Virus record (IMG/VR): IMGVR_UViG_2883489344_000002
Source of the DNA: a virus
Taxonomy: Duplodnaviria > Heunggongvirae > Uroviricota > Caudoviricetes
DNA length: 64,000 nt
Reading direction: 5' to 3' (one strand)
Shown: positions 8,570 to 63,160 of the stretch, one piece after another
Position numbering within the stretch: position 1 is the stretch's first letter
Layout of the letters: every line of letters begins with the position of its first letter
Program-made: the position numbers and the translations under genes
Notes under the pieces: model-generated
The model's input: only the letters and a program-made list of their open reading frames with translations
Told to the model about the DNA's origin: nothing
Databases searched by the model: none

Positions 8570-8896
8570 ATGCGCAATTATATGTCTGCACTGACCGCTG
8601 AAGAGATCAGCCGCATCGCTGATCAAGCCGTAGCAGATGTTGCGAGTCAGAAACTTACGACGACGAAAAGTGCCGCTCCAGCAGCCTACGGAACCGCTCA
8701 CCGCGACCGTACTGCAATGGCTCATAATGTTAATGTACGTTATAGTATCTCTGATAAAAATGTGCACCTCAGCAAGGGTAACGATGGTATTACAGTTATC
8801 TATAGCAATGATTTACATGGGGTCTCGAGTAAATTATCAATGGCAACTGGTAGAGATCTTTTCCGCACCGCATTCAATTTAGCTCGTAAGGGTTAA
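8570..8896 (+). CDS. hypothetical protein (108 aa)
   Basis: Strong RBS GGGAGGT. Followed by a terminator. Confidence 0.5.
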   Translation: MRNYMSALTAEEISRIADQAVADVASQKLTTTKSAAPAAYGTAHRDRTAMAHNVNVRYSISDKNVHLSKGNDGITVIYSNDLHGVSSKLSMATGRDLFRTAFNLARKG

Positions 8897-8908
8897 AAAT
8901 ACTTAATC

Positions 8909-8937
8909 AATGCCCCTCTGATGGGGCATTTTATTTT
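8909..8937 (+). terminator. rho-independent terminator
   Basis: ATGCCCC-TCTGAT-GGGGCAT followed by TTTATTTTG. Confidence 0.65.
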
Positions 8938-8948
8938 GCCGGTGAGAC

Positions 8949-9617
8949 ATGAACCAGCCTAAAAAATGGGTTTTTACAGAGCTTGTCCAAGACGCTGATA
9001 ATCCAGAACAATTAATAGCTTATGCGATATATAAAGCGGATAAAGACGAACTGGCTAAGAAGTGCCGTCAAAGAAATAAAAGTGAAGATGATATTGGTAT
9101 CGAGTTAGAACGGTTTCATGATAATCTCGCGGATTCAGACCGGCGGCTAGCTGAATATAAACGCCGTGCAAATCAAGTAGTAGAAGGTTTGGTCAGGGGG
9201 GTGGACAGCAGGGTAAGAGCAGAACTTGAAGCGCGTGAAAATGCTCATATAAGACACTTGGAACAACAACTTATTTCAGTTCAGAATGAATTAACGAGAG
9301 CTGAAGAGACAGCCCTAAAAAAATGGACAGAACAGGCCCATAACTATAGCGCGCATCTTAATAAACCGCCAACTTGGAAAGCTGTAGCTAAATGGATCGG
9401 TCTGTGGCTAATTTCTGGAATACCTGGTTTGTTCGCAACGGTAATCACGACTATCATATTGGTTGGGCTTGTTTCCTTATTTACTACTAATGCACTTCAG
9501 TCAACTAAAGAAGCTCTAAAAGCTAGTCTGGATGTACTGATGGTAGATCATGGGGGAGTGCCGACAGGAAATATCAATGATTCTGACTCAGTATTAAATG
9601 AAAAAAAGAATCAATAA
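8949..9617 (+). CDS. membrane-anchored coiled-coil protein (222 aa)
   Basis: Cytoplasmic coiled-coil N-terminal part and a C-terminal TM segment (WIGLWLISGIPGLFATVITTIILVGLVSLF). Lower GC than the backbone. Confidence 0.5.
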   Translation: MNQPKKWVFTELVQDADNPEQLIAYAIYKADKDELAKKCRQRNKSEDDIGIELERFHDNLADSDRRLAEYKRRANQVVEGLVRGVDSRVRAELEARENAHIRHLEQQLISVQNELTRAEETALKKWTEQAHNYSAHLNKPPTWKAVAKWIGLWLISGIPGLFATVITTIILVGLVSLFTTNALQSTKEALKASLDVLMVDHGGVPTGNINDSDSVLNEKKNQ

Positions 9618-9632
9618 ATTCCAAACTATAAA

Positions 9633-9656
9633 GCCTCAAGTCGAGGGTTTTTTTAT
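9633..9656 (+). terminator. putative terminator
   Basis: CCTC-AAGT-CGAGG hairpin followed by TTTTTTT. Confidence 0.45.
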
Positions 9657-9722
9657 ACTTTCGGGGAATGACCTATCTTGACGTGTTGTTAATGCATAAA
9701 AAACTTACTAAGGTGAAATGCG

Positions 9723-10047
9723 ATGACCGATCATTTAAAAGCCATATATGAAATGACCCGGCGCTACAATAAATTAGGGGTAGTTTCTAATGAAGTTTTT
9801 GGTAGCATTGAGATAAGCATGAAGGCTCGTGAGCTTAAAGAAAAAATGCCTAATCTCCGTCCTATGGACGAAGAGCAAATCAAGGCCGTTCGAAACCGCT
9901 ACGGTATGTCTTAGTCTGCACTGGCTATTACAATCGGTATAACCGTTGAAAACGTATCAAAATGGGAACGCAATGAAGGCAAGCCTGGTGGTGCCGCATT
10001 ACGCATCCTTAACACGTTGGAGGCCAAAGGTTCCAGCGTTTTTGTAT
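9723..10047 (+). pseudogene. XRE-family HTH DNA-binding protein interrupted by an in-frame TAG at 9912-9914
   Basis: The N-terminal 63-aa ORF continues in the same frame after the TAG into a canonical HTH (SALAITIGITVENVSKWERNEGKPGGAALRIL). The combined product would be about 108 aa. Confidence 0.5.
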
Positions 10048-10147
10048 AGACAATTTAAGAGCGCGACAAATCAAAAAAATAAATCAGCACTTCGCCTATA
10101 AATAATTTATGTTATTTATGAGAGAGCTTGAGATAAAGAATTTGAGC

Positions 10148-11236
10148 CTAATTTTCAGAGGCTTCCTTATCGAAAAATAGATTTTTATATCTTGACAAAA
10201 TACCTGGTGGAGCCATTGATTTAATTATTTTAATATGGGGCAATATCGATAAGAAAATCTGCTGGCCTTCAGTGCTTTTAGCACCAATGTACTTTCTAAT
10301 AAATTCATTCTCATCTATGATCCCTATCAAGAACTTGTAAACTTCTTTTCTTTCAATCAATATTCCAGAATCAAATATTTCATCTAAAGTTCTTATTAAC
10401 TTGCGAAGCTGGTATTCAAGTGAAGCAAGTCTTTTCCCGTTAAATTCCATAATATCAGATGTTGATTTTCCATTGTTCACCCCGTTGATTTCTAATTTTT
10501 CCAAATAATCACGCTCTTGCTGGGTAAATAATTCTCGTAAAGATAAAAAGGATTCGTATGTTTCGTCGTCATTGTGTTGGCTTATTATATAATCTAGTAT
10601 GCGTACTGCCTTTTGGGATTTTACATAGACGGAACTAATTATCGCGGTCTGTGCATTGTACTCATTTTGCAATTGAGATATCTGCTCTTCAAGATTTTTT
10701 TTAGAATTGTTTAACTTATCAAGTTCATCTTTAGCGTTGTCTATTCCCATTCGCGCTAGCTCTTGTTTTTCTTTTTCTCGTTCAATTTTTGTGTTGTTTA
10801 TCTCAGCCTGAAGAGCAAGCGCTGCTTTTGCGGCCATATTTGAATGCTCATCGGCTACAGATGCATCTGCTTTTTTTTGAGACAAAAGTATTTGTTTGTC
10901 TAAAATATTACCTTCAGCTTCAATTTCTTTTTTTAACTTATGATTGGCCGCCCAAGTTTGCAACCAATCAATGCCCATTTGCAAGTATGGATATGCAATT
11001 GCTAATATCAAACCCCACAGTATCGGCTGAAAAAATCTTTGTGAGTAATAGCTGGGTTCATTTAAAATGGCAGCAATGCGCTGCTCAATGCTGCTTTTGC
11101 TCAATGCTAATATAAGAATCGCGTCCCAATTTTTTACTAAGAAACTCAAGGCAACAAAACCAAATATTGGGCTTGTAAGCCTATGCTTAACCGCTTCTTT
11201 GATTGATTCTTTAAGCTCTTCCATACGAACTCCCAC
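10148..11236 (-). CDS. AT-rich membrane-anchored coiled-coil protein (362 aa), possible exclusion/abortive-infection factor
   Basis: About 30-35% GC in a GC-rich genome. Two N-terminal TM segments, a long coiled coil, and a C-terminal domain with no recognisable motif. Confidence 0.5.
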   Translation of the reverse strand: MGVRMEELKESIKEAVKHRLTSPIFGFVALSFLVKNWDAILILALSKSSIEQRIAAILNEPSYYSQRFFQPILWGLILAIAYPYLQMGIDWLQTWAANHKLKKEIEAEGNILDKQILLSQKKADASVADEHSNMAAKAALALQAEINNTKIEREKEKQELARMGIDNAKDELDKLNNSKKNLEEQISQLQNEYNAQTAIISSVYVKSQKAVRILDYIISQHNDDETYESFLSLRELFTQQERDYLEKLEINGVNNGKSTSDIMEFNGKRLASLEYQLRKLIRTLDEIFDSGILIERKEVYKFLIGIIDENEFIRKYIGAKSTEGQQIFLSILPHIKIIKSMAPPGILSRYKNLFFDKEASEN

Positions 11237-19915: not shown

Positions 19916-21129
19916 CAGTTAGTTTTCCCTATTTGCTCAGAGAGCCATTTGTTAAAGGCATTCTCAGCCTGCTTGTCGGTCATGCCGGTCAGTTTCATGG
20001 CATCCTTGAAGCCCTGCTTTCTCATGCGGAGCTGCTCGGCCACCAGCTTTTTGGCGTCGTCGCGCTCCTGCTCCGCCTTTTTGGCGCGGGCAAGGGCAAG
20101 CTTCAGCTCGGCCGCCTTTTTGGCCGTGGCGGTGCGCGCGCGGGCGGCTTTTTTGCGGAGCTGCTCTATCTGGTCGCGGCTGGTGGCCTGCTTCTTGGCC
20201 ATGGCCTGCTGGGCGGCCTGATAGCGGGCAAACTCCTTGCGCACCTTGTCTTGGTCAGTCTCGGCGCTCCGGTTGCGCCCCATGGCCTTCTGTTCGTCTT
20301 CAGTGAAGGTGCGGGTGGTTTTCTTTTTGTCATCACCAAAGGCAACCTGGGTCGCGGCCTTCTTCAGTTGCTGGCCAAGCTGGCGCTGCCATGTCATCGA
20401 CTGGAAGCGCGTCATGGTGTGGATCACGTGCTTGCAGGCGACGCCAGTCAAATCGGGGTTTCGCACCTTGGGGAAGGCGTATTCCGCCGGCGGCTTCAGG
20501 GCGTAATTGCCGGCCGTGGCCATGTAGCGATACCAATACTGGTGACGGCCGCAATCACAGTCGAAGGAAACGCGGCCGGCGGCCAGCTGGCGGGAGAGGG
20601 TCATCAGGGAGGCTTTCTCATCCCCCACGTCCTCTACATACCGATCCCACTCCTCAAAGCGCACCCGCACCAGGTGGTGATCGTCCATTGAGATGTCCGA
20701 GGCCTCGACCTTCACCATGGCGGTATTGTGCTGGAGGCGGATGAATATCGCCTTTTTGATGCCGCTGCCGTCATCCACTTTGTTGCTGGCGCGCTGCACA
20801 TCGATCTTGGTGGATTGCGCCACCAGCTGGGCATAGGTGATGCCTGGCACATCGCTATTGAACTGGGTGCGGTGCGCCATGCGACCGGTGATAAACCGCT
20901 TCATGTCCTCGGGGGTGAAGAAGGTCCCCTCTTTTTTCTTGCCCAGCTCAAGGAACTTCTCCAGCTCCTTGTTACGCATCATGGCCGGCGTCAGGGTACG
21001 GCGCGCGCCCTGGCGGTTTTTGCGTTGGGTCTTGCGGATCCGGTTAAAAACCTTCAGGAACTCGGCCGCAGACAGGCCATGCGTGGCATAGCGGCCGTTC
21101 TCCTTGCGGTCAAAATCTGGGGATGGCAT
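19915..21129 (-). CDS. hypothetical protein with Cys-rich segment and Lys-rich coiled-coil C-terminus (404 aa)
   Basis: SFDCDCGRH...VACKHVIH is a putative zinc-binding segment. The C-terminal 120 aa are K/A/E-rich. Confidence 0.45.
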   Translation of the reverse strand: MPSPDFDRKENGRYATHGLSAAEFLKVFNRIRKTQRKNRQGARRTLTPAMMRNKELEKFLELGKKKEGTFFTPEDMKRFITGRMAHRTQFNSDVPGITYAQLVAQSTKIDVQRASNKVDDGSGIKKAIFIRLQHNTAMVKVEASDISMDDHHLVRVRFEEWDRYVEDVGDEKASLMTLSRQLAAGRVSFDCDCGRHQYWYRYMATAGNYALKPPAEYAFPKVRNPDLTGVACKHVIHTMTRFQSMTWQRQLGQQLKKAATQVAFGDDKKKTTRTFTEDEQKAMGRNRSAETDQDKVRKEFARYQAAQQAMAKKQATSRDQIEQLRKKAARARTATAKKAAELKLALARAKKAEQERDDAKKLVAEQLRMRKQGFKDAMKLTGMTDKQAENAFNKWLSEQIGKTN

Positions 21130-21138
21130 CGCTTATCC

Positions 21139-21486
21139 TCAGCTGACGTAGAGAGAGCCGGAGATCTCCGGGCTGGTGGCGGAGAAGGTGTTGATCTGCT
21201 CACGGATCCACGCCAGGGTAGGCACCGTGATTTCAGTGCCGGCAACCATGGCGTCGCACTCATCCTCCAGCCCACACACCAGCGTGACTACCCAACGCAG
21301 CTCGGCAGTGCCCCAGATACGGTAGGCAATCAGGTCAGGGCGATAAATTTCATCGGCCAGGATGTCATAGGCCAGCAGGTCAGAGTCATAGCTCAGGGAC
21401 TTGGCCATAATCTCCTGGCGCATATAGGCGCGCAGGATGGGATCGGCTACGTTCCGGTCGTCCAGGCGACTAATGGCATCACTCAC
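21139..21486 (-). CDS. tail protein X-like (LysM-like, P2 gpX family)
   Basis: The central region DLLAYDILADEIYRPDLIAYRIWGTAE...GTEITVP resembles the gpX/LysM pattern. Confidence 0.4.
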   Translation of the reverse strand: MSDAISRLDDRNVADPILRAYMRQEIMAKSLSYDSDLLAYDILADEIYRPDLIAYRIWGTAELRWVVTLVCGLEDECDAMVAGTEITVPTLAWIREQINTFSATSPEISGSLYVS

Positions 21487-22127
21487 AGGTAGTTCCCCTT
21501 GCCCGTCAGCGGGCTGTAAGAGGCCTGCTCGATAGATTGGCGCTCAAAGGCGCTGACGATAGTCCGCAGGGGATTAAGCGGCGAGGCTGGCTCCTGGGCG
21601 CGTGTGAAGCCCAGCATCTTTTCCAGGTATTGGACGCTGGCCACGTTGTTAAAAGTGGTGGCAAAGGTGCACAGCATGGTAAGGCTGTGCTCACCGCGCA
21701 GCTGTTCCCAGTCGATACGGTAAATGGTTGACCCTTTCGCATCCCGCGCCACGTCTACCAGGGTGTCAGGAATGTTGAAGCGCCCGCCGGCATTGCGGGG
21801 GAAGGTGATTGCTTTCTGGCGCACCAGCTCGCGGTAGATGTCCAGGGCTTCCACCAGCACCGGCTTGCCGCTGGCACCTGCATCCCCCAGGCGCACCCGC
21901 ACCCCGGCGCGCGCGGTGATGAAGTCGCTGGACTCATCCACCAGCACCTCAAAACCCTTCTGCTCCAAGTCGTGGATTGTCTCAATCAGCTGCTGCTCGA
22001 GCTGGTGGCGGTTATCAGGCAGCTTGATGGCATCAGCAATGAACAGCTCTCCATCCTTCCAAGCGGCTTTAGCCAGCATTGGGGGGCTGGTGGTCAGGCA
22101 GATGGCACAGATTTTTTTGTTGATCAT
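21483..22127 (-). CDS. hypothetical protein (214 aa)
   Basis: ORF coupled to the gpX-like gene. Confidence 0.45.
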   Translation of the reverse strand: MINKKICAICLTTSPPMLAKAAWKDGELFIADAIKLPDNRHQLEQQLIETIHDLEQKGFEVLVDESSDFITARAGVRVRLGDAGASGKPVLVEALDIYRELVRQKAITFPRNAGGRFNIPDTLVDVARDAKGSTIYRIDWEQLRGEHSLTMLCTFATTFNNVASVQYLEKMLGFTRAQEPASPLNPLRTIVSAFERQSIEQASYSPLTGKGNYL

Positions 22128-22442
22128 GCAGGGTATCCCGTGGCGCGCCCGCCTGGATTGGCGAACAGGCTGAAGAATACAGTTACTTACATTTGCCTGG
22201 GCATCGAAAATGGGATAGTTATTGCTTTCACAGTGAGGTAAGAGCAGATAAATAGGCTCCGCTTGTAATACTTAAATTACTTGCACTTAGGCTGCTTCGT
22301 ACAGGTCTCAATCAGCATTGACCAGGTGCGCTTTGTGCTAGAGGCGTATGCTGGTGCATTATGGCACGTTAATTACAGTGCTGGGCAAGAAAATACGGTT
22401 AGAAAAAGGCCGCTAATGCGGCCATATTGCGCAGAGAGTTAG

Positions 22443-23615
22443 CTATTGATATTGGGAGAGATAATCTGCAACTCCGTTCGCTGGATTTATCCCGCCAGTA
22501 TAGACTGTTCCTAGCTCTTGAGGCGTAACGGAGGTTGTAGGCCATATAACCATACCTTCAAAATAACTATCTATTTTAATTCTTTGAAGCTCTTTGAAAA
22601 GGTGGTCTTCTAATTCATTTTTTTTTAAGCAATTAACATAATAAGCGGCTGCACTTGCTACTATGTCTACAATCTGTAGTTGAGGATATTCTTGAGATGA
22701 ATGGAATGTTAAAGATCGAGCTTTGATTGGTAACTCAAAGGTTCTTCTGTCATAGCCATACACCTCTGTAATCCTTGACAAGTCCATAAATTTATTAAAT
22801 AAGTCTTGTTTCTCTACAATCGCTTTGGAATCGTCATGCTTGATATAAAAACCGCTGGGGTATGTTTTACCCCACTCTATACAGTGATTGAAGAGGCTGG
22901 GTATGGAAGGGTCTAATGTATTTTTTTCAACATTTTCTAATATATCATTAATTTCGCTTTTGGTAATGCTAATTCTATCTATTGTAGATTTGAATCTTTT
23001 GTCCTTAGAGCAAGCCTTTAGTTCATCAACTGATTCGTAAAATTCAGCAATAGACTCAGAGGATTGAATCCTAATCATGTTCATGAACTTCTGGTACATT
23101 TTATCTGTTTCTTCCTCTCCACACAAAGCAGGGAGGCAATAATAGTAAACATTAGACAGAGCAAGGTTGTGTCCATCTTTATAAAGATCCCACCCTCTAT
23201 TAAAACACCATGTTTCGATTAGAATATCAACAATCTTTGTTGTTAACATGTATTTTTTGTCGATTAAACAGATTTTAACATTCTCTTTATTGATATATTT
23301 ACTTTCAAGGAGCCTAATGATTCCATCCTGACCTGATTTCCTACGTTTAAGAGTTTTAAAGTGAGCTTCTATAGGGGATTTACTTCCTGTCAGCTCTAAT
23401 GCTTTGAGCGCATCTTGTTTATTAATGCTGCTTGAGCTTAAAGTGAAACAAGGTTGCGTTGGGTCAAGCAAGTTCCCGCCGGTATTTCCTGATTCATCAA
23501 AAAATATATCAGGCTTTATATGCATCATTTTATTTTTCTTTGCGGTCAGCTCTCTTTTATTTTCGTTACTCTTCTTTATTTTGTTTGCGCGCCGAAGTTG
23601 GCTATTTGCACCCAT
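22443..23615 (-). CDS. AT-rich DUF3800-like protein (390 aa; alternative start at 23528)
   Basis: Low GC. DUF3800-type N-terminal FFDESGNTG motif and C-terminal QIVDIVASAAAY motif. K-rich N-terminal extension. GAGGT SD at the long start. Confidence 0.55.
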   Translation of the reverse strand: MGANSQLRRANKIKKSNENKRELTAKKNKMMHIKPDIFFDESGNTGGNLLDPTQPCFTLSSSSINKQDALKALELTGSKSPIEAHFKTLKRRKSGQDGIIRLLESKYINKENVKICLIDKKYMLTTKIVDILIETWCFNRGWDLYKDGHNLALSNVYYYCLPALCGEEETDKMYQKFMNMIRIQSSESIAEFYESVDELKACSKDKRFKSTIDRISITKSEINDILENVEKNTLDPSIPSLFNHCIEWGKTYPSGFYIKHDDSKAIVEKQDLFNKFMDLSRITEVYGYDRRTFELPIKARSLTFHSSQEYPQLQIVDIVASAAAYYVNCLKKNELEDHLFKELQRIKIDSYFEGMVIWPTTSVTPQELGTVYTGGINPANGVADYLSQYQ

Positions 23616-23873
23616 AAATACCTCTAGAATGATCTGAAAAAAGGCGTTCTACTTTATTGCAAGATTATAATACCACTTAATATAGGTTGGGTTATATAAT
23701 TAATGTCAAGTTTGACTCACTATTTCTTGATAAGGCAATAATAATAAGGAGGCCTGCTCCCAGCGGCCTGCCATGCCTGCTTAAGAAACAAGCTTAGGCT
23801 AGAATACTCTCCGTTTTCCAAGCGAACCCTGTAATAAGTGCCATGGCATCGGCCAGCAAGGCAAGAGGACTAT

Positions 23874-24329
23874 ATGAAGCAACACCACAAAATCAGCCAG
23901 GCAGATATAGCCGCACAGGATGAAGCCCGCAGGATTATCAGCTTTGCGGAGACACTGCTGATGAAAGTACAAAGGCACCCTGGCCGCGTCGCATCGGCCT
24001 ATGTCCCCGATCTACAGGCCTATGAAATCTATCTCAGGATGAAGGATGGCACCGCTCAGCTACATGGACTTGATGTACTCGTTGTGGCAAACATATCAGC
24101 GGCAAAGCCCGGTACGGGCGGATTCACGCTGTTGCTCCACCAGCTCAAAACGTATGCCGAGCAGCGTAGATGGGTGCTGAAAGTCGAAAATGTTTTGGAC
24201 GCGCGTTTCCGGGCATTTTTGGAGAAGGAAGGGTTTGTTTTCCCTGATGTAGGGATGCACTACCACGGCTCAGGATACTGGGCAGCGAAGGGAGTGATGT
24301 CTACAGAGGAGCTGGTGGCATTAAGATAG
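23874..24329 (+). CDS. GNAT-family N-acetyltransferase (putative)
   Basis: AGAGGA SD. The KPGTGGFTLLL segment resembles the acetyl-CoA-binding Q/RxxGxG/A region. About 150 aa. Confidence 0.45.
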   Translation: MKQHHKISQADIAAQDEARRIISFAETLLMKVQRHPGRVASAYVPDLQAYEIYLRMKDGTAQLHGLDVLVVANISAAKPGTGGFTLLLHQLKTYAEQRRWVLKVENVLDARFRAFLEKEGFVFPDVGMHYHGSGYWAAKGVMSTEELVALR

Positions 24330-24495
24330 CGTGAGCTGGTGAAGAGAACCGCCCAGAAGGGCGGTTTAGGTAAAACGCATTAAAGATCAGCGAACTATTC
24401 AGCAGGAACCAATATAGTTATTACGCATCGGGGCGCATGATAGGGCAGGCGGCTGACCAGTGCAAATTGAGTATGTTGGTCAGCTGTCGGCCACA

Positions 24496-24906
24496 TTAGA
24501 GATAGTCTCCTTCGTAACCATCCATCAGATCCTCCCGGTAGTTGGAAAGCAGGCGCAGCGCATAAGCTGTCTCCTGAACGGTTGCATCACTTTCAGCAGC
24601 GAGAACGGTTGTCTTTACCAGGTGATAGGATGCATCCAACTCAAAGCCATTCATCATCAGGAATATCGATGCGGCCTGAAAGGCTGTGCGTTTATTCGCA
24701 TCATTGAAGGCATGAGCCTTTGCAATGCCCACCAGGTACATGGCTGCCAAGCTAAACACATCATCGCAATTTTCATAATGGTGAAGAGTTTGCACTCGAT
24801 TAAGTGCTCCTTCGAGCCTATCTAGGTTTGGCGTACCACTGTTAGGCAAAGTTACTCTCTGAAGGTTAATGACCTGTTCCGTAGTCAGGAAAATGATCTC
24901 CATCAT
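24496..24906 (-). CDS. doc: Doc (death-on-curing) toxin, Fic fold
   Basis: HAFNDANKRTA matches the Doc variant of the Fic motif. 136 aa. A 4-nt overlap with the upstream phd-like gene. Confidence 0.8.
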   Translation of the reverse strand: MMEIIFLTTEQVINLQRVTLPNSGTPNLDRLEGALNRVQTLHHYENCDDVFSLAAMYLVGIAKAHAFNDANKRTAFQAASIFLMMNGFELDASYHLVKTTVLAAESDATVQETAYALRLLSNYREDLMDGYEGDYL

Positions 24907-25280
24907 TTATCTTCCAGAGCCTTAATTATTTTTGCGTGTTTCTTGCGTGTTTTTTCAATCGCTTCATCAAAAGAAAGCGATCTACCCGGAGGTAAAATTG
25001 ATCTGTGCGGGTGCGCTAAATCTTCGACCTTTTTAACGGACTCAGTTAGATGCTTAGGTAAGCCCATAGGATCCCAAGTAGTGGCGTTTCCAGCGTAGAT
25101 GTCAGCCCTATCATCAGACTTATTCATAAAACCTAATACACCCACGCCACCAGCAGCTCGGGCACTCAGCAAGATGTCAGGTTTACCGCGTTGGGTGACT
25201 ATGATTTGCTCGCCGTTGCGTAATGCTTCAAGTACATCTGCAAGCTCATCGCGCATACGTGTATAGCTAATATTTTTCAT
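24903..25280 (-). CDS. phd: Phd/YefM-family antitoxin (125 aa, with C-terminal extension)
   Basis: N-terminus MKNISYTRMRDELADVLEALRNGEQIIVTQRGKPDILL matches the Phd/YefM consensus. Confidence 0.75.
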   Translation of the reverse strand: MKNISYTRMRDELADVLEALRNGEQIIVTQRGKPDILLSARAAGGVGVLGFMNKSDDRADIYAGNATTWDPMGLPKHLTESVKKVEDLAHPHRSILPPGRSLSFDEAIEKTRKKHAKIIKALEDK

Positions 25281-25445
25281 AGCAAGCTCCTAGATATGTA
25301 CATGTACAGGTTAGCGCTAGGATGAAGGATTAGCAAGCATGCTGAAGTTAAAAAGCCGAAAGTGGAAAATCCTCAAGTGTTCCTTTTAAGAATGTTCCTA
25401 ATAAATTATAATGTTTACGATTTTTTACATATTTAAGGATGGTGT

Positions 25446-25931
25446 ATGGCTAGTTATGTCGATTCAAATCTTTCTAAAGGTGAAGAGGTAATCACCCGCG
25501 CCCATGTATCTTGGCTTTCCTTCTTATTCGTAATAGTAATTGGTACAGTGTGTTTGCTGATAGGGCTGTTAGGAGCACTTATTCGTGGGAGCGGTGGCGG
25601 CGACATTCCTGGCATTTCGTGGTTTTTCATTTTAGTGGGGGCATTTCTCCTTCTTAAGGTCACCCTGATCATCGTAACTACAGAGCTTGCATTAACAAAT
25701 AAGCGCGTCATCGCTAAATTTGGCTTTATCCGCAGAACTACTGTTGAACTACGCCTTGATAAAGTCGAAAGTTTAGAGGTAAATCAAGGAATTATGGGGC
25801 GCTTGCTCGGGTATGGGAATATTGTTGTTAAAGGAACTGGCGGCACAGGCACCCCAATTCCATCTATCAAAAAACCCTTAGACTTTAGACGAATCGTTAA
25901 CAATTACATTGAAGAAAGAGAAGCAGTTTAA
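25446..25931 (+). CDS. membrane protein with bacterial PH (bPH_2/DUF304-like) domain
   Basis: Two TM segments followed by a YdbT-like PH-domain pattern. Low GC. A terminator follows at 25948-25979. Confidence 0.45.
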   Translation: MASYVDSNLSKGEEVITRAHVSWLSFLFVIVIGTVCLLIGLLGALIRGSGGGDIPGISWFFILVGAFLLLKVTLIIVTTELALTNKRVIAKFGFIRRTTVELRLDKVESLEVNQGIMGRLLGYGNIVVKGTGGTGTPIPSIKKPLDFRRIVNNYIEEREAV

Positions 25932-25947
25932 GATTTGATAGCGTTTA

Positions 25948-25979
25948 GAAGGCCATCTTTAAAGGGTGGCCTTTTTTAT
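25948..25979 (+). terminator. rho-independent terminator
   Basis: AAGGCCATC-TTTAAAG-GGTGGCCTT followed by TTTTTATTT. Confidence 0.55.
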
Positions 25980-26262
25980 TTCATTTGAAAATGATAATTG
26001 GCAAGCGCCAGAAAAGGGAAGAGCCGCCCGGGGGCAGCTCTTGTTCATCAAGGTAAGTTGAATCTTAACTGAAATCGATAACGACGGTCATGTGAATGCC
26101 AGGGCACTTTAATGAACCCAGGCACCAAAAACAATACGTGATGCTCGGTCAGGCGGCTTTTTTTTCGGGTGGTGGAGTGGCAGTTTTTTGTTTACTGACG
26201 TGCCAGAAAAGCTTTCTGCGGCGATTACTTAGGCGATTTTTGTTCATAAAATAAAATGCATT

Positions 26263-26910
26263 TTAGATTAGGGGTATATCGATGCGCGCCATCTGATATG
26301 CCAGCGCCAGCAGCTCGTACTGAGTCCCATTCAAAGCCTCAAAGGTTCGCTTTCCGCCTACAGTGCCTGCGGCATGTACGGGCACAAGCCACGGGTAACA
26401 ATCACGAACCCTTGCCGGCGCGGCCAGCTGGTGGTGCCACTCGCACAATGGCAGCACCAGCTTGTGCGCGCCCGGCTTTACCCGGCCGTCAATGTGGTGC
26501 AATGAGACCTGCTCTGTGCGAATGCCATGCTGTAGGCAGGCAATGCATGGGAGAGTGCCCAGGGCGGCCATGATGCCGCGCTCCTCGGAGGTAGGGCTAC
26601 GCCCCTTGGTTCCCAGACTGCGCGCCGGCTTTCGCGTCCTGGCCGCCGCTGGTGGCTTGCTAACTGCCTGCTGGCGCTTAGCCTGGGCTTTCTCCACCAG
26701 CTGGGCACGGTACTCAGGAGATTGTTGGCGCGCGCGCTGCTTTTCCTGCTGCCGCTTACCGCTGGCTAAGGCTTTTTCCTGCATGGCCTGGCGGTAAGCC
26801 GGATCTGCCTGGCGGGTGCGCTGCTTCTCCCGCTGGCGCTGTTGGGCATCCCGCTGTTTTTGCAGCTGGCGCGCCTTCTTCTCTTCCGTCAGTCCATTAA
26901 TGGCCGGCAC
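26263..26910 (-). CDS. ref: Ref-like HNH endonuclease (recombination enhancement function family)
   Basis: Basic, Q/R-rich disordered N-terminal half followed by C..C...HHIDGR......LPLCEWHH core, as in P1 Ref. Confidence 0.55.
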   Translation of the reverse strand: MPAINGLTEEKKARQLQKQRDAQQRQREKQRTRQADPAYRQAMQEKALASGKRQQEKQRARQQSPEYRAQLVEKAQAKRQQAVSKPPAAARTRKPARSLGTKGRSPTSEERGIMAALGTLPCIACLQHGIRTEQVSLHHIDGRVKPGAHKLVLPLCEWHHQLAAPARVRDCYPWLVPVHAAGTVGGKRTFEALNGTQYELLALAYQMARIDIPLI

Positions 26911-41677: not shown

Positions 41678-42007
41678 TTAGCTCACCAGCTTCAAATCCT
41701 GCTTGCGGTGCTTCTTATGGTCATCATAGAAATTCTCATGAGTTCCAATAGACAGCAAATACAGCTCAAGCTTTCCTTCTAACCAAGAATAGCCCAAAAG
41801 ATACAGCTCTTTTTCGAGAGAGAATTTGTGAACACGCAAAAATTTGAGATCCCCTTTTTTCTGTTCGCCAATCAAGGGATCGGCAATAACGCGTTCAATT
41901 TCATCTTCTACAATACGCAGTTGCTTGCCGCTCAGTTTAGACAATGCTTTTTCAAAGCGACGAGTTTCGTAAACATCAACCTTGTTTACGCTCTGTTCTC
42001 CGGACAT
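41678..42007 (-). CDS. RelE/ParE-superfamily toxin
   Basis: The C-terminal region LKFLRVHKF...YLLGY...LELYLLSIGTHENFY fits the RelE/ParE fold consensus. The start is taken at MSGEQSV. Confidence 0.55.
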   Translation of the reverse strand: MSGEQSVNKVDVYETRRFEKALSKLSGKQLRIVEDEIERVIADPLIGEQKKGDLKFLRVHKFSLEKELYLLGYSWLEGKLELYLLSIGTHENFYDDHKKHRKQDLKLVS

Positions 42008-42212
42008 ATTTCTTGACCCTTCCATTCTCAACTTCACTTTTAGCTAGTAAGGCTTCGAGAATGAAGGAATACGGCAGATCAGGGTTGTCTTCGGCAATCC
42101 TACCTATTTTAGCCCAATGCTCAATCTGCTTTGGTACGCTGCGGCTTGAAACCTCAGCATACACTTTCACATCATCCACAAAGTCCTCATCAAGACGGAC
42201 ACTAATAGCCAT
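41976..42212 (-). CDS. ParD/RelB-type RHH antitoxin
   Basis: MAISVRLDEDFVDDVKVYAEVSSRSVPKQIEHWAKIG matches the ParD antitoxin pattern. 78 aa. Upstream of and overlapping the toxin. Confidence 0.6.
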   Translation of the reverse strand: MAISVRLDEDFVDDVKVYAEVSSRSVPKQIEHWAKIGRIAEDNPDLPYSFILEALLAKSEVENGRVKKYVRRTERKQG

Positions 42213-60270: not shown

Positions 60271-60729
60271 GCCCTTGGCAAAAGCGCTTTGGGTTATCGC
60301 CGCTTTACAGCGGTGGCCGTAGCCAACTGGCTTTAATCAAATACACCACTATTAATGTACTCGCACAGTCACCCGGTACACTATCGTGAATTTTCACAGT
60401 AATTTATTGGCAAACGCCTTCGCCATCTCTTCATCAAGGTGTCAGTTTTGCTATTGAAAGTTATTGTACGTTAGGAGAATTTTTTGTACCTCTGAGCTAT
60501 GGTAGAGCTTGACCATGTTGATAGGCAGTTTTGAGCGAATAGCGGAAGTTCGAAATTGTGATCTGATCTTTGTTGATTAATGTCTCCCAATGTTAGTAGT
60601 TTCTTCATATACAACGCTATGATATTCCCATTAATTCGAGTTTTCGAACGAACAAATCAGAGACCAGTGGTCACCTGCCGAGCACTGACTTGCATGTATG
60701 GATTTAATTAATCAAGGAAATTAATCGTT

Positions 60730-62757
60730 ATGAGTGATAATTTTGTTAGTAAAATTGTTAAGGGAAGAATCAAACCACCAATACGTGCTGATTTTAGTCT
60801 TGAAAAATGGAATGAGGAGTGGGCTAAGGTTGAGGCAAACTCTTCAGCAAGAGATAAAAAAGTCTATACAATGGGTATAATTATTGATGGTGTGCTCAGT
60901 GATATTAGAGAAAAACTAGCGGATTTATATCGACAAGCACCGAAAACAAACCATGAAAAACTGATGATCTCGTATATTGCAAGCTCCAATAGGACATCAG
61001 CTGTTGCTCTTAAACTTGCAAAAAGAACACCAACGACAAATGTTAATGACATAATGCTAAAAGCAAATGGTCGAGTAAACAAACAAAGCTTAGGAGAGAT
61101 CGTTCATGGAGCTGTTGATGGTTTTCAGCTTGCCATAAGAGAATGCATAAAAGGCATAGAGAATAATAGTCAAATAACAAGTTCTGATGATCCAATAGAT
61201 GAAATGATTTTCATCCAACAAGAAAGCTGGTTATCTCAGTTATATCATACTTACCTCCATCTTTGGCAATGCATTTTATGGAGTGATTATAATTTAGTAG
61301 AGATTGATGTTGAAAATAAAATATTCAGAATCGAACAGCCAAACACACCATTTGAAATTGCATTTAATAATAGTAGCCAGCGAAAAGAAAGTCTTTCAGC
61401 CCAAATGACATTTATCGCTACCCTACCTAATATAGCCCAATTCTTTGATGATGATAAATATATTTTTATTACTCGGGGTAATAAAAAAAGAGTGGCAAAA
61501 GTTGCATCTATTAGTAATGCGACTAGAGAATTAAAAACAATCAACGCGCACTGGAGAATGGGGGAGCATGATCTTGAAGACCACTTTCCTAAAGAGTGGT
61601 TAAACAATGATTTTGGTAAAGGGTTTTGTTTGTCAGAAGTATTGAATGTAATGAGAGTATTGATGCTCATCGCTAACATTGAGACTGAAAAATATCCAGA
61701 AGATGATAGTGCATATAATGTTAATAAATTAAGGGAGTTTTGTCCAACCGTTCAAGCAAGCTCATTAGAATGTGCCTTGTGTGAAGCTACAGAAATTAAC
61801 GCCCTTAAAATTAGTAAAATTCTTGATTTTCTAACATTTAATTCTTCTCCAACTGGAGATATTTGGTGTCAACCGTTGGTAAAATTAAAGAAAAATAAGT
61901 ATGCATTATTGACTAGCGCATTAAACGCACCGGTGATACTTAGGCTTTTCGAGCGTTGGGCATATCTTTTTGATATTGATCTCAGTAAAAAAGGAACGAC
62001 TTACGAAATAAAAGTTGTAGACGAAATAAACAGCGCTCTTAGAAGCAATGTATTTATAACTGACTATGACGATGCAGTATCTAAAAGAATTAAAGTAATA
62101 TCTGGTGAGGAAGAGATTGACTTTTTGGCAAGGGTCGATGATTTGATATTGATTGGTGAAGCAAAGTCTATAGTTACCACTGATTCAGAAATATCTAAGT
62201 ATCGGACGTCTGAAATACTTCAACATGCGGGAGAACAGGTTGTAAGGAAAACAGAGTTTTTAAGAACGAATTTACAAACTGTTTTTGAAGTATTGAATTG
62301 GAGTTATGATGCGAATAAAGATTATAAGTTTGCAGGGTTTATCATTAACAGCAGTCGCATATTTGTCGGGCATTCATTTAATTCAATACCAGTAATTGAT
62401 GAGAAAATACTTCAGGCATACTTCTCCTCAAATGAAATAAACCTGTTAACTGTGATTTCACAAAATAAGTCGAAATCTATTGCTTGGTACAGACTTTATA
62501 ACAATATCAATGAATTGAAGGATAACTTCAGTAAATATATCGCAGCCCCACCACAATTGAATGCCAACACTAAAGATTATGAGTATAATGAAATAGTTTT
62601 CCCCCATATAAATAATGACTCTTATAAAATCTCAAAAAAATATCTTGTATTTAAATCACGTGGCCTGTTAGCTCCTATGGAACAAGAACATAGTTTCCCG
62701 GTGATCAAATCAGCAGATTACGATTTAGAGATCGAGACTATTAACGTGACACTTTGA
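60730..62757 (+). CDS. large AT-rich protein of unknown function (675 aa) with a possible PD-(D/E)xK motif; candidate defence/exclusion gene
   Basis: About 30% GC, against roughly 55-60% for the backbone. It is preceded by a 450-bp AT-rich promoter region. EIDFLARVDDLILIGEAKS has the form D-x(n)-ExK. No NTPase motif. Confidence 0.6.
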   Translation: MSDNFVSKIVKGRIKPPIRADFSLEKWNEEWAKVEANSSARDKKVYTMGIIIDGVLSDIREKLADLYRQAPKTNHEKLMISYIASSNRTSAVALKLAKRTPTTNVNDIMLKANGRVNKQSLGEIVHGAVDGFQLAIRECIKGIENNSQITSSDDPIDEMIFIQQESWLSQLYHTYLHLWQCILWSDYNLVEIDVENKIFRIEQPNTPFEIAFNNSSQRKESLSAQMTFIATLPNIAQFFDDDKYIFITRGNKKRVAKVASISNATRELKTINAHWRMGEHDLEDHFPKEWLNNDFGKGFCLSEVLNVMRVLMLIANIETEKYPEDDSAYNVNKLREFCPTVQASSLECALCEATEINALKISKILDFLTFNSSPTGDIWCQPLVKLKKNKYALLTSALNAPVILRLFERWAYLFDIDLSKKGTTYEIKVVDEINSALRSNVFITDYDDAVSKRIKVISGEEEIDFLARVDDLILIGEAKSIVTTDSEISKYRTSEILQHAGEQVVRKTEFLRTNLQTVFEVLNWSYDANKDYKFAGFIINSSRIFVGHSFNSIPVIDEKILQAYFSSNEINLLTVISQNKSKSIAWYRLYNNINELKDNFSKYIAAPPQLNANTKDYEYNEIVFPHINNDSYKISKKYLVFKSRGLLAPMEQEHSFPVIKSADYDLEIETINVTL

Positions 62758-63160
62758 TTTTTCTAAATATATTGAATGTTATTGTAATGGCGATGTAATT
62801 AACAGAGTGTACCATCGCCATTTTCCCCTAGAAAAGCAATGTCCGCTTCTGGCACAAAGCAGACATGCTTCATCCGGCGTTTTGTCGTCGTCAGTTAACC
62901 CAATCTCTTTGTACCAGGCACGGCGGCCGCTCCAACTTTCTCGTATCATTTGTTGCCAGAACTGCACTGCAAAGAGGCATGCAAATGCTGTCGCATTTGT
63001 CGCCTTTAGGCTGGGAACACATCGATCTGATAGGCGATTATAGATGGAAAAGCAACCAAATACCGGCTTCTGGTAAGTTTCGTCGGCTGAGACCAGCTAA
63101 AGTCGAAAGGTCAAAAATAGCCTTAACGTACAATAATTTTCGATATCCAAACTGACCCCT

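Follow-up and report, generated by a model that had tools for sequence, protein, structure and literature searches.

What does an AT-rich gene encoding a DUF3800-family protein do between two backbone genes of a phage-plasmid? The question is raised by IMG/VR virus record IMGVR_UViG_2883489344_000002 (Caudoviricetes), of which a stretch of 64,000 nucleotides (nt), hereafter the window, was analysed. Judging from their sequence, the gene and its flanks probably form a standalone, mobile, defence-type nuclease cassette, a reading to which we give somewhat better than even chances. It is favoured because of the intact and strongly constrained RNase H2-like constellation of putative catalytic residues in the protein, the accessory status of the gene, its promiscuous transfer between temperate elements and defence islands, the cassette architecture that it shares with proven defence systems and the links of its family with retrons and CRISPR. 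The gene in question is the following:

22443..23615, minus strand: coding sequence of a DUF3800-family protein, long form with a helical insert of ~140 residues, 390 amino acids (aa) (open reading frame, Pfam, phrog_12991 and NCBI match)

An earlier note on this DNA had proposed a DUF3800 protein of this length, and a Pfam profile search bore it out: PF12686 (DUF3800) matched with 44.7 bits (gathering cutoff 21; E = 2.9e-11), and the open reading frame (ORF) occupies exactly the positions given above. Similarity to the DUF3800 profile, the lack of which the note had named as speaking against the assignment, was found above the curated threshold. Residues 37-325 of the protein were aligned with positions 2-148 of the 149 in the profile, and phrog_12991, a family of unknown function, matched at E = 1e-158. 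A 100% identical protein, encoded on a contig of ~102 kb, has the NCBI entry 'DUF3800 domain-containing protein [Nissabacter sp. SGAir0207]'. The protein clearly belongs to a known, uncharacterised family, to which the NCBI annotation already assigns it. Both signatures pointed out in the note were located, FFDESGNTG at residues 38-46 and QIVDIVA at residues 314-320. Its description of a gene low in guanine plus cytosine (GC) with AT-rich flanks also held, with a GC content of 0.358 for the gene, 0.374 for the upstream intergenic flank (23616-23837) and 0.479 for the downstream one (22128-22442), versus 0.599 for the backbone at 12-22 kb; the neighbouring genes mat and ref had values of 0.594 and 0.625, respectively. 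The ratio of nonsynonymous to synonymous substitution rates (dN/dS), calculated against five homologs, was ~0.09, indicating that purifying selection on the gene is strong.

The AlphaFold2 (AF2) model of the protein was confident except for residues 360-390, with a predicted local distance difference test (pLDDT) score of 82.7 and a predicted template modelling (pTM) score of 0.81. In this model the core adopts an RNase H2-like fold, which is shared with RNase HII/HIII, and RNase H2 scored far above integrases in the fold comparison. A helical insert of ~140 residues sits between strands 3 and 4, so that the 149-position Pfam domain is stretched over 289 residues. Residues D40, E41, K120, D261, S307, Q314 and D317 were invariant in 56 out of 56 sequences, down to 22% identity, and E83 and E134 were conserved in 55 of them. 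D40 and E41 were placed at the end of strand 1 and D261 at the end of strand 4, with Q314 and D317 in the long C-terminal helix that follows; the DEDD residues of type-2 RNase H occupy the corresponding structural elements. The GRG motif of type 2 RNase H is replaced by G-N-T-G. The RNase H-like fold that the note had suggested checking is shared with type 2 RNase H at the level of the fold, but not at that of sequence or profile homology.

Moreover, we observed a clade-invariant motif near the C-terminus, made up of W358, P359, P365, L368, T370, G374 and G375 (residues 358-375; ~22491-22544, minus strand). It falls in the only low-confidence region of the AF2 model (pLDDT < 50) and may be an interaction or regulatory peptide.

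The protein begins with a segment that precedes the DUF3800 domain:

23517..23615, minus strand: basic N-terminal segment, codons 1-33, predicted to form a single long helix over residues 3-32 (conservation, AF2)

Residues 1-34 contain 8 K, 3 R and 2 E, and residues 3-32 were modelled as one long helix with a pLDDT of 73-86. A mis-called start, with the true start at M30 or M31, was suspected because the PHROG and Pfam profiles start only at residue ~33-37. This was discarded: a ribosome-binding site (RBS) precedes the initial ATG, relatives down to 38% identity retain both the MxKNS start and the 39-residue lead, and dN/dS (omega) is below 1, for which reasons the segment is regarded as real. 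All relatives with at least 45% identity have exactly 39 residues before DESGNTG and begin with M-[GS]-[KR]-N-S-[QK], K and R making up 28-44% of the segment. The start pattern MxKNS[QK]..R is common to the clade, and it is found as MxKNS..R..K down to 38% identity. The representative at this identity, P0125, starts MSKNSKQRRLKK, keeps the 39-residue lead and is an exception among relatives at 40% identity or less, in which the segment is missing. An exhaustive search of 1.84 billion cluster representatives gave 1009 matches at E <= 1e-3, 189 of them at E <= 1e-30; among the 150 best family representatives, 3 could be aligned from residue 1 and 147 had no such segment. The dN of codons 2-34 was ~2.3 times that of the rest of the gene, and the omega of the segment was 0.07 in the comparison with Pantoea and 0.22 in that with Proteus, dS being computable in these two of the five comparisons and saturated in the other three. 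By these comparisons, the basic segment is real, clade-specific and rare in the DUF3800 family. The K-rich tail that the note had called unusual is so family-wide; within the clade, it is a conserved hallmark.

To what extent the gene belongs to its carrier is answered by the relatives of the latter. Markers of P1-like elements in the window include a P7-type C1 repressor, a Cre-like recombinase, Ref, Phd/Doc, RdgC, a Dmt-like double methylase and P1-type tail genes, and by these markers the carrier is a P1-like phage-plasmid. The DUF3800 gene lies in a variable slot of its backbone:

22128..26262, no strand: variable ref-mat slot, 4135 bp, GC 0.43 (comparison with relatives)
26263-26910: ref (RecA_dep_nuc), flanking the slot (Pfam)
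21483-22127: mat, 214 aa, homolog of the maturation control protein Mat of P1 (41% identity), flanking the slot

Besides the DUF3800 gene, this slot contains Phd-Doc, an ORF of 151/163 aa and a gene for a bPH_2 membrane protein. The direct neighbour of the DUF3800 gene is the Mat homolog, and not a tail-X-like gene as the note had it; a 115-aa tail/baseplate-type gene (phrog_1269) is located one gene beyond mat. In P1, ref and mat are 78 nt apart, and in a Citrobacter relative 225 nt. In the closest relative, a plasmid of Pantoea sp. CCBC3-3-1 (locus L098, 5814-6592), the interval contains an STM2901-family/DUF1493 pair, which confirms that the ref-mat slot is a cargo hotspot of P1-like elements. 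The DUF3800 gene is missing at this locus in P1 and in the Citrobacter, Pantoea and Cronobacter relatives. Since the interval is empty or otherwise filled in these relatives, the gene is accessory cargo and not conserved backbone, in agreement with the note. The replicon relatives were located through the Mat protein instead of a DNA search; a megablast search with 10 kb revealed no close relative among phages and a single weak match to a plasmid.

Several parts of the cassette could be recognised around the gene:

23621..23625, minus strand: Shine-Dalgarno sequence AGAGG, 5 nt before the ATG at 23615 (sequence reading)
23616..23764, minus strand: conserved upstream region that travels with the gene, with promoter-like hexamers (DNA alignment)
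22408..22423, minus strand: intrinsic terminator GGCCGC-ATTA-GCGGCC, followed by TTTTTCT, 20 nt past the stop codon (terminator scan)
22316..22354, minus strand: right-hand half-site of the boundary in degenerate form, hairpin 1 (profile search with nhmmer, alignment)
23748..23800, minus strand: very degenerate left-hand boundary remnant, hairpin 2 side (alignment with homologous cassette flanks only)

DNA identity of ~80% to loci of Klebsiella, Enterobacter, Pantoea and Kosakonia and to a locus of a gut metagenome-assembled genome was confined to 22325-23764, which corresponds to the gene with ~150 nt upstream and ~118 nt downstream. In the alignment, GGAGG was found at the position equivalent to the Shine-Dalgarno sequence in five homologous cassettes, and the terminator stem and T-run were identical in 6 out of 6 aligned cassettes. 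The hexamers upstream of the gene are TTGACA (23709-23704), TATATT (23684-23679) and TATAAT (23669-23664). A consensus promoter scan called no promoter in 23616..23764 because the hexamer spacing is 19 nt, and a canonical sigma-70 promoter was not upheld, the scan being silent and the hexamers occurring at this spacing only. Overall, the cassette appears to be self-contained, comprising a promoter region, an RBS and a terminator besides the gene. The right half-site matched positions 7-45 of the repeat model described below (E = 0.043 window-wide), with the expected place and orientation, and aligned with the full repeat of homologous loci, whose DNA homology stops at 22325. The left-hand remnant is a weak call because it was not detected by the repeat hidden Markov model (HMM).

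Homologs with 66-85% identity were found in P2-like and lambdoid prophages, in Tn3-type DNA and in an island at the transfer-messenger RNA (tmRNA) site. In E. coli O104:H4, the homolog is found between gpD and ogr of a P2-like prophage (38 out of 5426 complete E. coli genomes), and in Proteus, behind a tail-tip gene of a lambdoid prophage. In Yersinia, the gene is part of a Tn3/resolvase/FRG region; in Shewanella, of a chromosomal insert flanked by insertion sequences (IS3); and in Methyloprofundus, it adjoins an integrase, a type IIG restriction-modification (R-M) gene and AAA_13. The Klebsiella homolog is located in a tmRNA/smpB-site island, with Shango (SngC, E = 6e-280) and a Septu-like AAA_15+HNH pair as neighbours. 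We observed directly upstream of the DUF3800 cassette of this island (L002-L007, 1228-9597) a Shango-like trio (TerB_N/TerB_C, a BrxC/D-like ATPase and a helicase) together with the AAA_15+HNH pair. In Alloalcanivorax (L014), the homolog belongs to a run of short same-strand ORFs between two matches to sRNA-Xcc1 (Rfam RF02221; 8035-8122 and 15078-15163), which we take to be a family associated with integron attC sites; this suggests that it is an integron cassette. Among the 12 closest homologs on viral contigs (at least 47% identity), the GC content was 0.32-0.34 for the gene and 0.36-0.59 for the backbone.

Integrases and transposases were the commonest neighbours of the homologs, with R-M genes and further components of defence systems coming next, and no family recurred more than five times among the 125 neighbouring proteins, so that a conserved partner gene was discarded. 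A partner RNA, as in other DUF3800 genes, was likewise discarded: Rfam scans of positions 21000-26500 of the window (E-value mode) and of 14 homologous loci (gathering mode) revealed none of the DUF3800 RNA motifs (DUF3800-I to XI, Weinberg 2017), and no non-coding motif was common to the subclades of homologs. By its composition and distribution, the gene is a horizontally acquired, mobile, single-gene accessory cassette, and it is co-located with defence genes. The mobile defence context that the note had ascribed to DUF3800 proteins is found both in these neighbourhoods and in the literature (PMC7736814, PMC10910872, PMC12669027).

In enterobacterial loci, the DUF3800 cassette is bounded by a double-hairpin repeat. 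The full element of ~75-85 nt consists of hairpin 1 (GTCCGCT-yCTGGCACrr-AGCGGAC), a conserved linker (about cAGGTAACTGAGCTgAA) and hairpin 2 (GGTCyGCT-gTGAGCGrrr-AGCGGAC). Full copies, all co-oriented, are placed between successive cassettes, as in L002, at 7107, 9781, 11261 and 12627, and the repeat separates each unit of the Klebsiella tmRNA-site island (L002-L007) from the next. Around the DUF3800 gene of the window, we found degenerate copies only (22354-22316 and, by alignment, on the left). A second AT-rich cassette of the window is cleanly bracketed, by a hairpin-2 half at 60526-60557 and a hairpin-1 half at 62835-62871, and contains a long ORF:

60730-62757, plus strand: ORF of 675 aa, GC 0.34

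No Pfam, NCBIfam or PADLOC match was obtained for this ORF, which makes it, in its bracketed cassette, an unknown candidate defence gene.

We compared repeat copies from loci L002-L012, L104-L183 and L222-L224, as well as those of the window. The repeat was found on at least 118 viral contigs, on 98 plasmids (86 from Klebsiella) and in 238 out of 5426 E. coli genomes, in CP4-57-like islands. The order in 80 viral loci was a hairpin-2 half, AT-rich cargo (GC 0.32-0.46, 0.7-4.1 kb) and a hairpin-1 half, in a backbone with a GC content of 0.45-0.55, and 41 cassettes were bounded on both sides. In at least one locus (L105), the backbone is P2-like, and the tail-fibre genes and FI flank the site. 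The cargo between repeats is rich in known defence systems; it includes Pycsar, DarTG, Tmn and the PD-T7 types PD-T7-1 and PD-T7-5, which are bracketed in P2-like prophages, as well as PDC-S35, a pPIWI-associated nuclease and an RT-protease. As single-stranded DNA, the repeat folds into a long imperfect palindrome (z of -3.2 to -3.8 for the best copies). The covariation score of a two-hairpin model, resting on one covarying pair, was reached by 2 out of 500 shuffles, so that separate hairpins are weakly favoured by the pair counts; the model of one long hairpin like attC was discarded, as 82 out of 500 shuffles were as good. In a comparison with integron attC sites, which have the cores RYYYAAC and GTTRRRY and go with an IntI integrase in the array, the repeat often showed ..GCAAC at its 5' and GTT.. 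at its 3' end, its halves flanked each cassette, and the integrases nearby were of the P4 type only.

No trace of the repeat sequence was found in the literature searched, and a 2026 survey of P2/P4 hotspots leaves the exchange mechanism unexplained and does not mention such repeats (PMC13586616); as far as we have checked, the boundary repeat appears to be undescribed. Full sites part tandem cassettes in tmRNA-site islands, and half-sites bracket single cassettes in the P2 tail-fibre/FI hotspot, in the P1-like phage-plasmid (two cassettes), in CP4-57-like islands and on Klebsiella plasmids. It is conceivable, at rather less than even odds, that the DUF3800 gene is one cargo of an undescribed class of plug-in defence cassettes delimited by these ~75-85-nt sites. 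The sites would then be a recombination or attP-like substrate, used by an unknown enzyme or by short-homology recombination, that shuttles defence genes, and the long-form DUF3800 protein would be a new single-gene nuclease defence. As a lead, the boundary repeat may be more valuable than the DUF3800 gene itself.

Comparison with known systems further delimits the gene. As in the Pfam DUF3800 family, the protein scores above the gathering threshold and has the N-terminal D-E motif and a C-terminal QxxD; unlike that family, it has the 149-position domain spread over 289 residues, preceded by a 33-residue basic N-terminal helix. A DUF3800 protein or a fusion of reverse transcriptase (RT) and DUF3800 is the effector of type VII retrons (Mestre et al. 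2020, PMC7736814), which have in common with the present gene the Pfam family, the predicted RNase H2-like fold and the defence context, but not its surroundings, since neither an RT nor an msr/msd non-coding RNA lies beside the gene in the window or in the homologous loci. No retron RT was found in the window block or beside homologs, the sole RVT_1 neighbour being a group II intron RT in one locus, and the Rfam scans of the window positions and 14 loci given above contained no retron RNA. In addition, retron-type proteins are reported to be without the Q of QxxD, whereas Q314 is invariant in the present clade. DUF3800 is also an accessory gene of type V-A2/VI CRISPR systems, where it is regarded as an RNase H-fold nuclease (PMC10910872, PMC12669027, PMC13594972); it occurs there as TPR-DUF3800 with Cas12a2/Cas12a3 and as Csx32 with Cas13 CASK (PMC10910872, PMC12669027, PMC13594972, bioRxiv 10.64898/2026.08.25.746378). 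These proteins belong to the same domain family, but the present gene is standalone, with no cas gene, CRISPR array, TPR domain, Csx33/Csx34 or kinase partner: DUF3800 was the only Pfam domain in the protein, and no cas or kinase families were found among the 125 neighbours.

Type 2 RNase H (RNase HII/HIII/H2A) differs from the protein in having no detectable sequence homology with it, no large helical insert and R in place of N in the GRG motif. In architecture, the gene resembles the cassettes of PMC9122126 and PMC13586616, which are AT-rich and self-contained, are inserted among the backbone genes of temperate elements and are exchanged by elements that are unrelated; one DUF3800 homolog also lies in a P2-like prophage. 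The present carrier, however, is a P1-like phage-plasmid and the slot is ref-mat, and the double-hairpin boundary repeat is not described in those papers. What is new is a standalone gene of the long form whose product starts with a basic helix, and the occurrence of this gene as a cassette in defence hotspots.

What we infer from these observations concerns nuclease activity, its substrate, the role of the N-terminal helix and a defence phenotype. A P1-like phage-plasmid would have acquired the cassette in its variable ref-mat slot, and there the DUF3800 protein would most likely act as a standalone effector against phages or other mobile elements and provide superinfection exclusion for the lysogen. 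As a putative metal-dependent nuclease, it would cleave nucleic acid produced by the invader by means of the carboxylates D40, E41, D261 and D317; its substrate could plausibly be a hybrid of RNA and DNA or some other structured intermediate of replication. The basic N-terminal helix, the helical insert or both would bind this substrate or hold the enzyme inactive until infection. The gene is thus a credible single-gene anti-phage candidate.

A number of points weigh against this proposal. The match of the four invariant carboxylates to the DEDD positions, suggested by the model, is one of topology only. The likeness to RNase H2 is remote and confined to the fold: when a 56-sequence profile was compared with E. 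coli RnhB by hhalign, the probability was 0.6%, and only DESGN and DEVGR lined up. Foldseek returned zero matches among 350,542 PDB chains, as did a profile search of the PDB sequences with hmmsearch. DESGNTG served as the retrieval pattern, and its invariance is therefore in part artefactual. No known-defence model of PADLOC-DB v2.0.0 or NCBIfam matched the protein, and a known defence model was discarded; a defence-system search, as recommended in the note, gave in PADLOC v2 only a weak SduA signal (E = 5.6e-4, 17 bits) at residues 172-248, in the helical insert. The literature searched contained no experiment on any DUF3800 protein, and Csx32 is uncharacterised in bioRxiv 10.64898/2026.08.25.746378. 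Guilt by association is indirect evidence: genes unrelated to defence, too, are found among prophage morons and cassette cargo, including, between the boundary repeats, those for NUDIX, HAD and GNAT proteins. Finally, a lone nuclease with no visible regulator would have to avoid damage to its own cell.

Other roles for the protein are less consistent with the distribution of the gene. A nuclease that destroys nucleic acid of the host or of rival elements, such as retron multicopy single-stranded DNA (msDNA), CRISPR R-loops or satellite replication intermediates, without protecting the host would be a factor of counter-defence or inter-element warfare. Carriage by phages and a phage-plasmid agrees with this, and RNA/DNA hybrids such as msDNA would be apt substrates for a protein with an RNase H2-like fold, in keeping with the retron link (PMC7736814). 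We nevertheless consider it unlikely, as close homologs occur in chromosomal islands and arrays without phage genes, beside Shango, Septu-like and R-M systems, and cassettes of this type mostly carry bona fide defence systems. A slightly smaller chance is given to a selfish toxin or addiction-type nuclease that stabilises its carrier, as Phd-Doc does, with no specific anti-phage role. The gene shares its slot with Phd-Doc, and it is a single AT-rich gene, maybe silenced by H-NS and widespread on mobile DNA; however, no antitoxin-like gene or RNA is conserved as its partner, purifying selection on it is strong across very different carriers, and it is also found where stabilisation is unneeded, as in the IS-flanked chromosomal insert of Shewanella.

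The fold itself, which resembles RNase HII/HIII, and the proximity of RdgC, Ref and other DNA-metabolism genes would be compatible with a replication or repair helper that removes primers or R-loops in the manner of RNase H during phage-plasmid replication. Such a role is very improbable for a gene with foreign GC content and no RNase H sequence homology that is absent from the locus in P1 and the Citrobacter, Pantoea and Cronobacter relatives and recurs as an isolated cassette in unrelated elements. Least probable is a mobility enzyme, that is, an RNase H-fold transposase or recombinase that moves the hairpin-bounded cassettes: most DUF3800 homologs have no repeats, and RNase H2 outscores integrases by far. 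That the protein is the transposase of its cassette was discarded, since dozens of cassettes with unrelated cargo and no DUF3800 gene are flanked by the same repeats.

Elsewhere in the ref-mat slot, Phd-Doc and the bPH_2 'membrane-flanked domain' protein (phrog_3707) occupy 24496-25931. The Phd-Doc neighbours named in the note were recovered by family matches, with E = 4e-11 for Fic/DOC and 28.0 bits for Phd, the latter under the Pfam cutoff of 29.8; its GNAT assignment for the ORF at 23838-24329 was not backed by Pfam, NCBIfam or PADLOC. Two other AT-rich regions were observed in the window. A block at 8570-11236 (GC 0.35-0.46) contains ORFs of 108, 222 and 362 aa, for which no significant family match was obtained, with weak ZorA/MutS_IV-like signals only, and a small AT-rich patch contains a ParE-like toxin gene (PF15781, E = 3e-32) at 41678-42037 on the minus strand.

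DUF3800 is a recurrent but biochemically blank part of type VII retrons and of type V and VI CRISPR loci, and a compact standalone DUF3800 gene with its own putative promoter would be a convenient entry point to the function of the domain. The cassette is already present in E. coli O104:H4 and in Klebsiella, under strong purifying selection. The boundary repeat, in turn, offers a sequence-level handle on the movement of defence cassettes among P2-like phages, phage-plasmids, plasmids and genomic islands.

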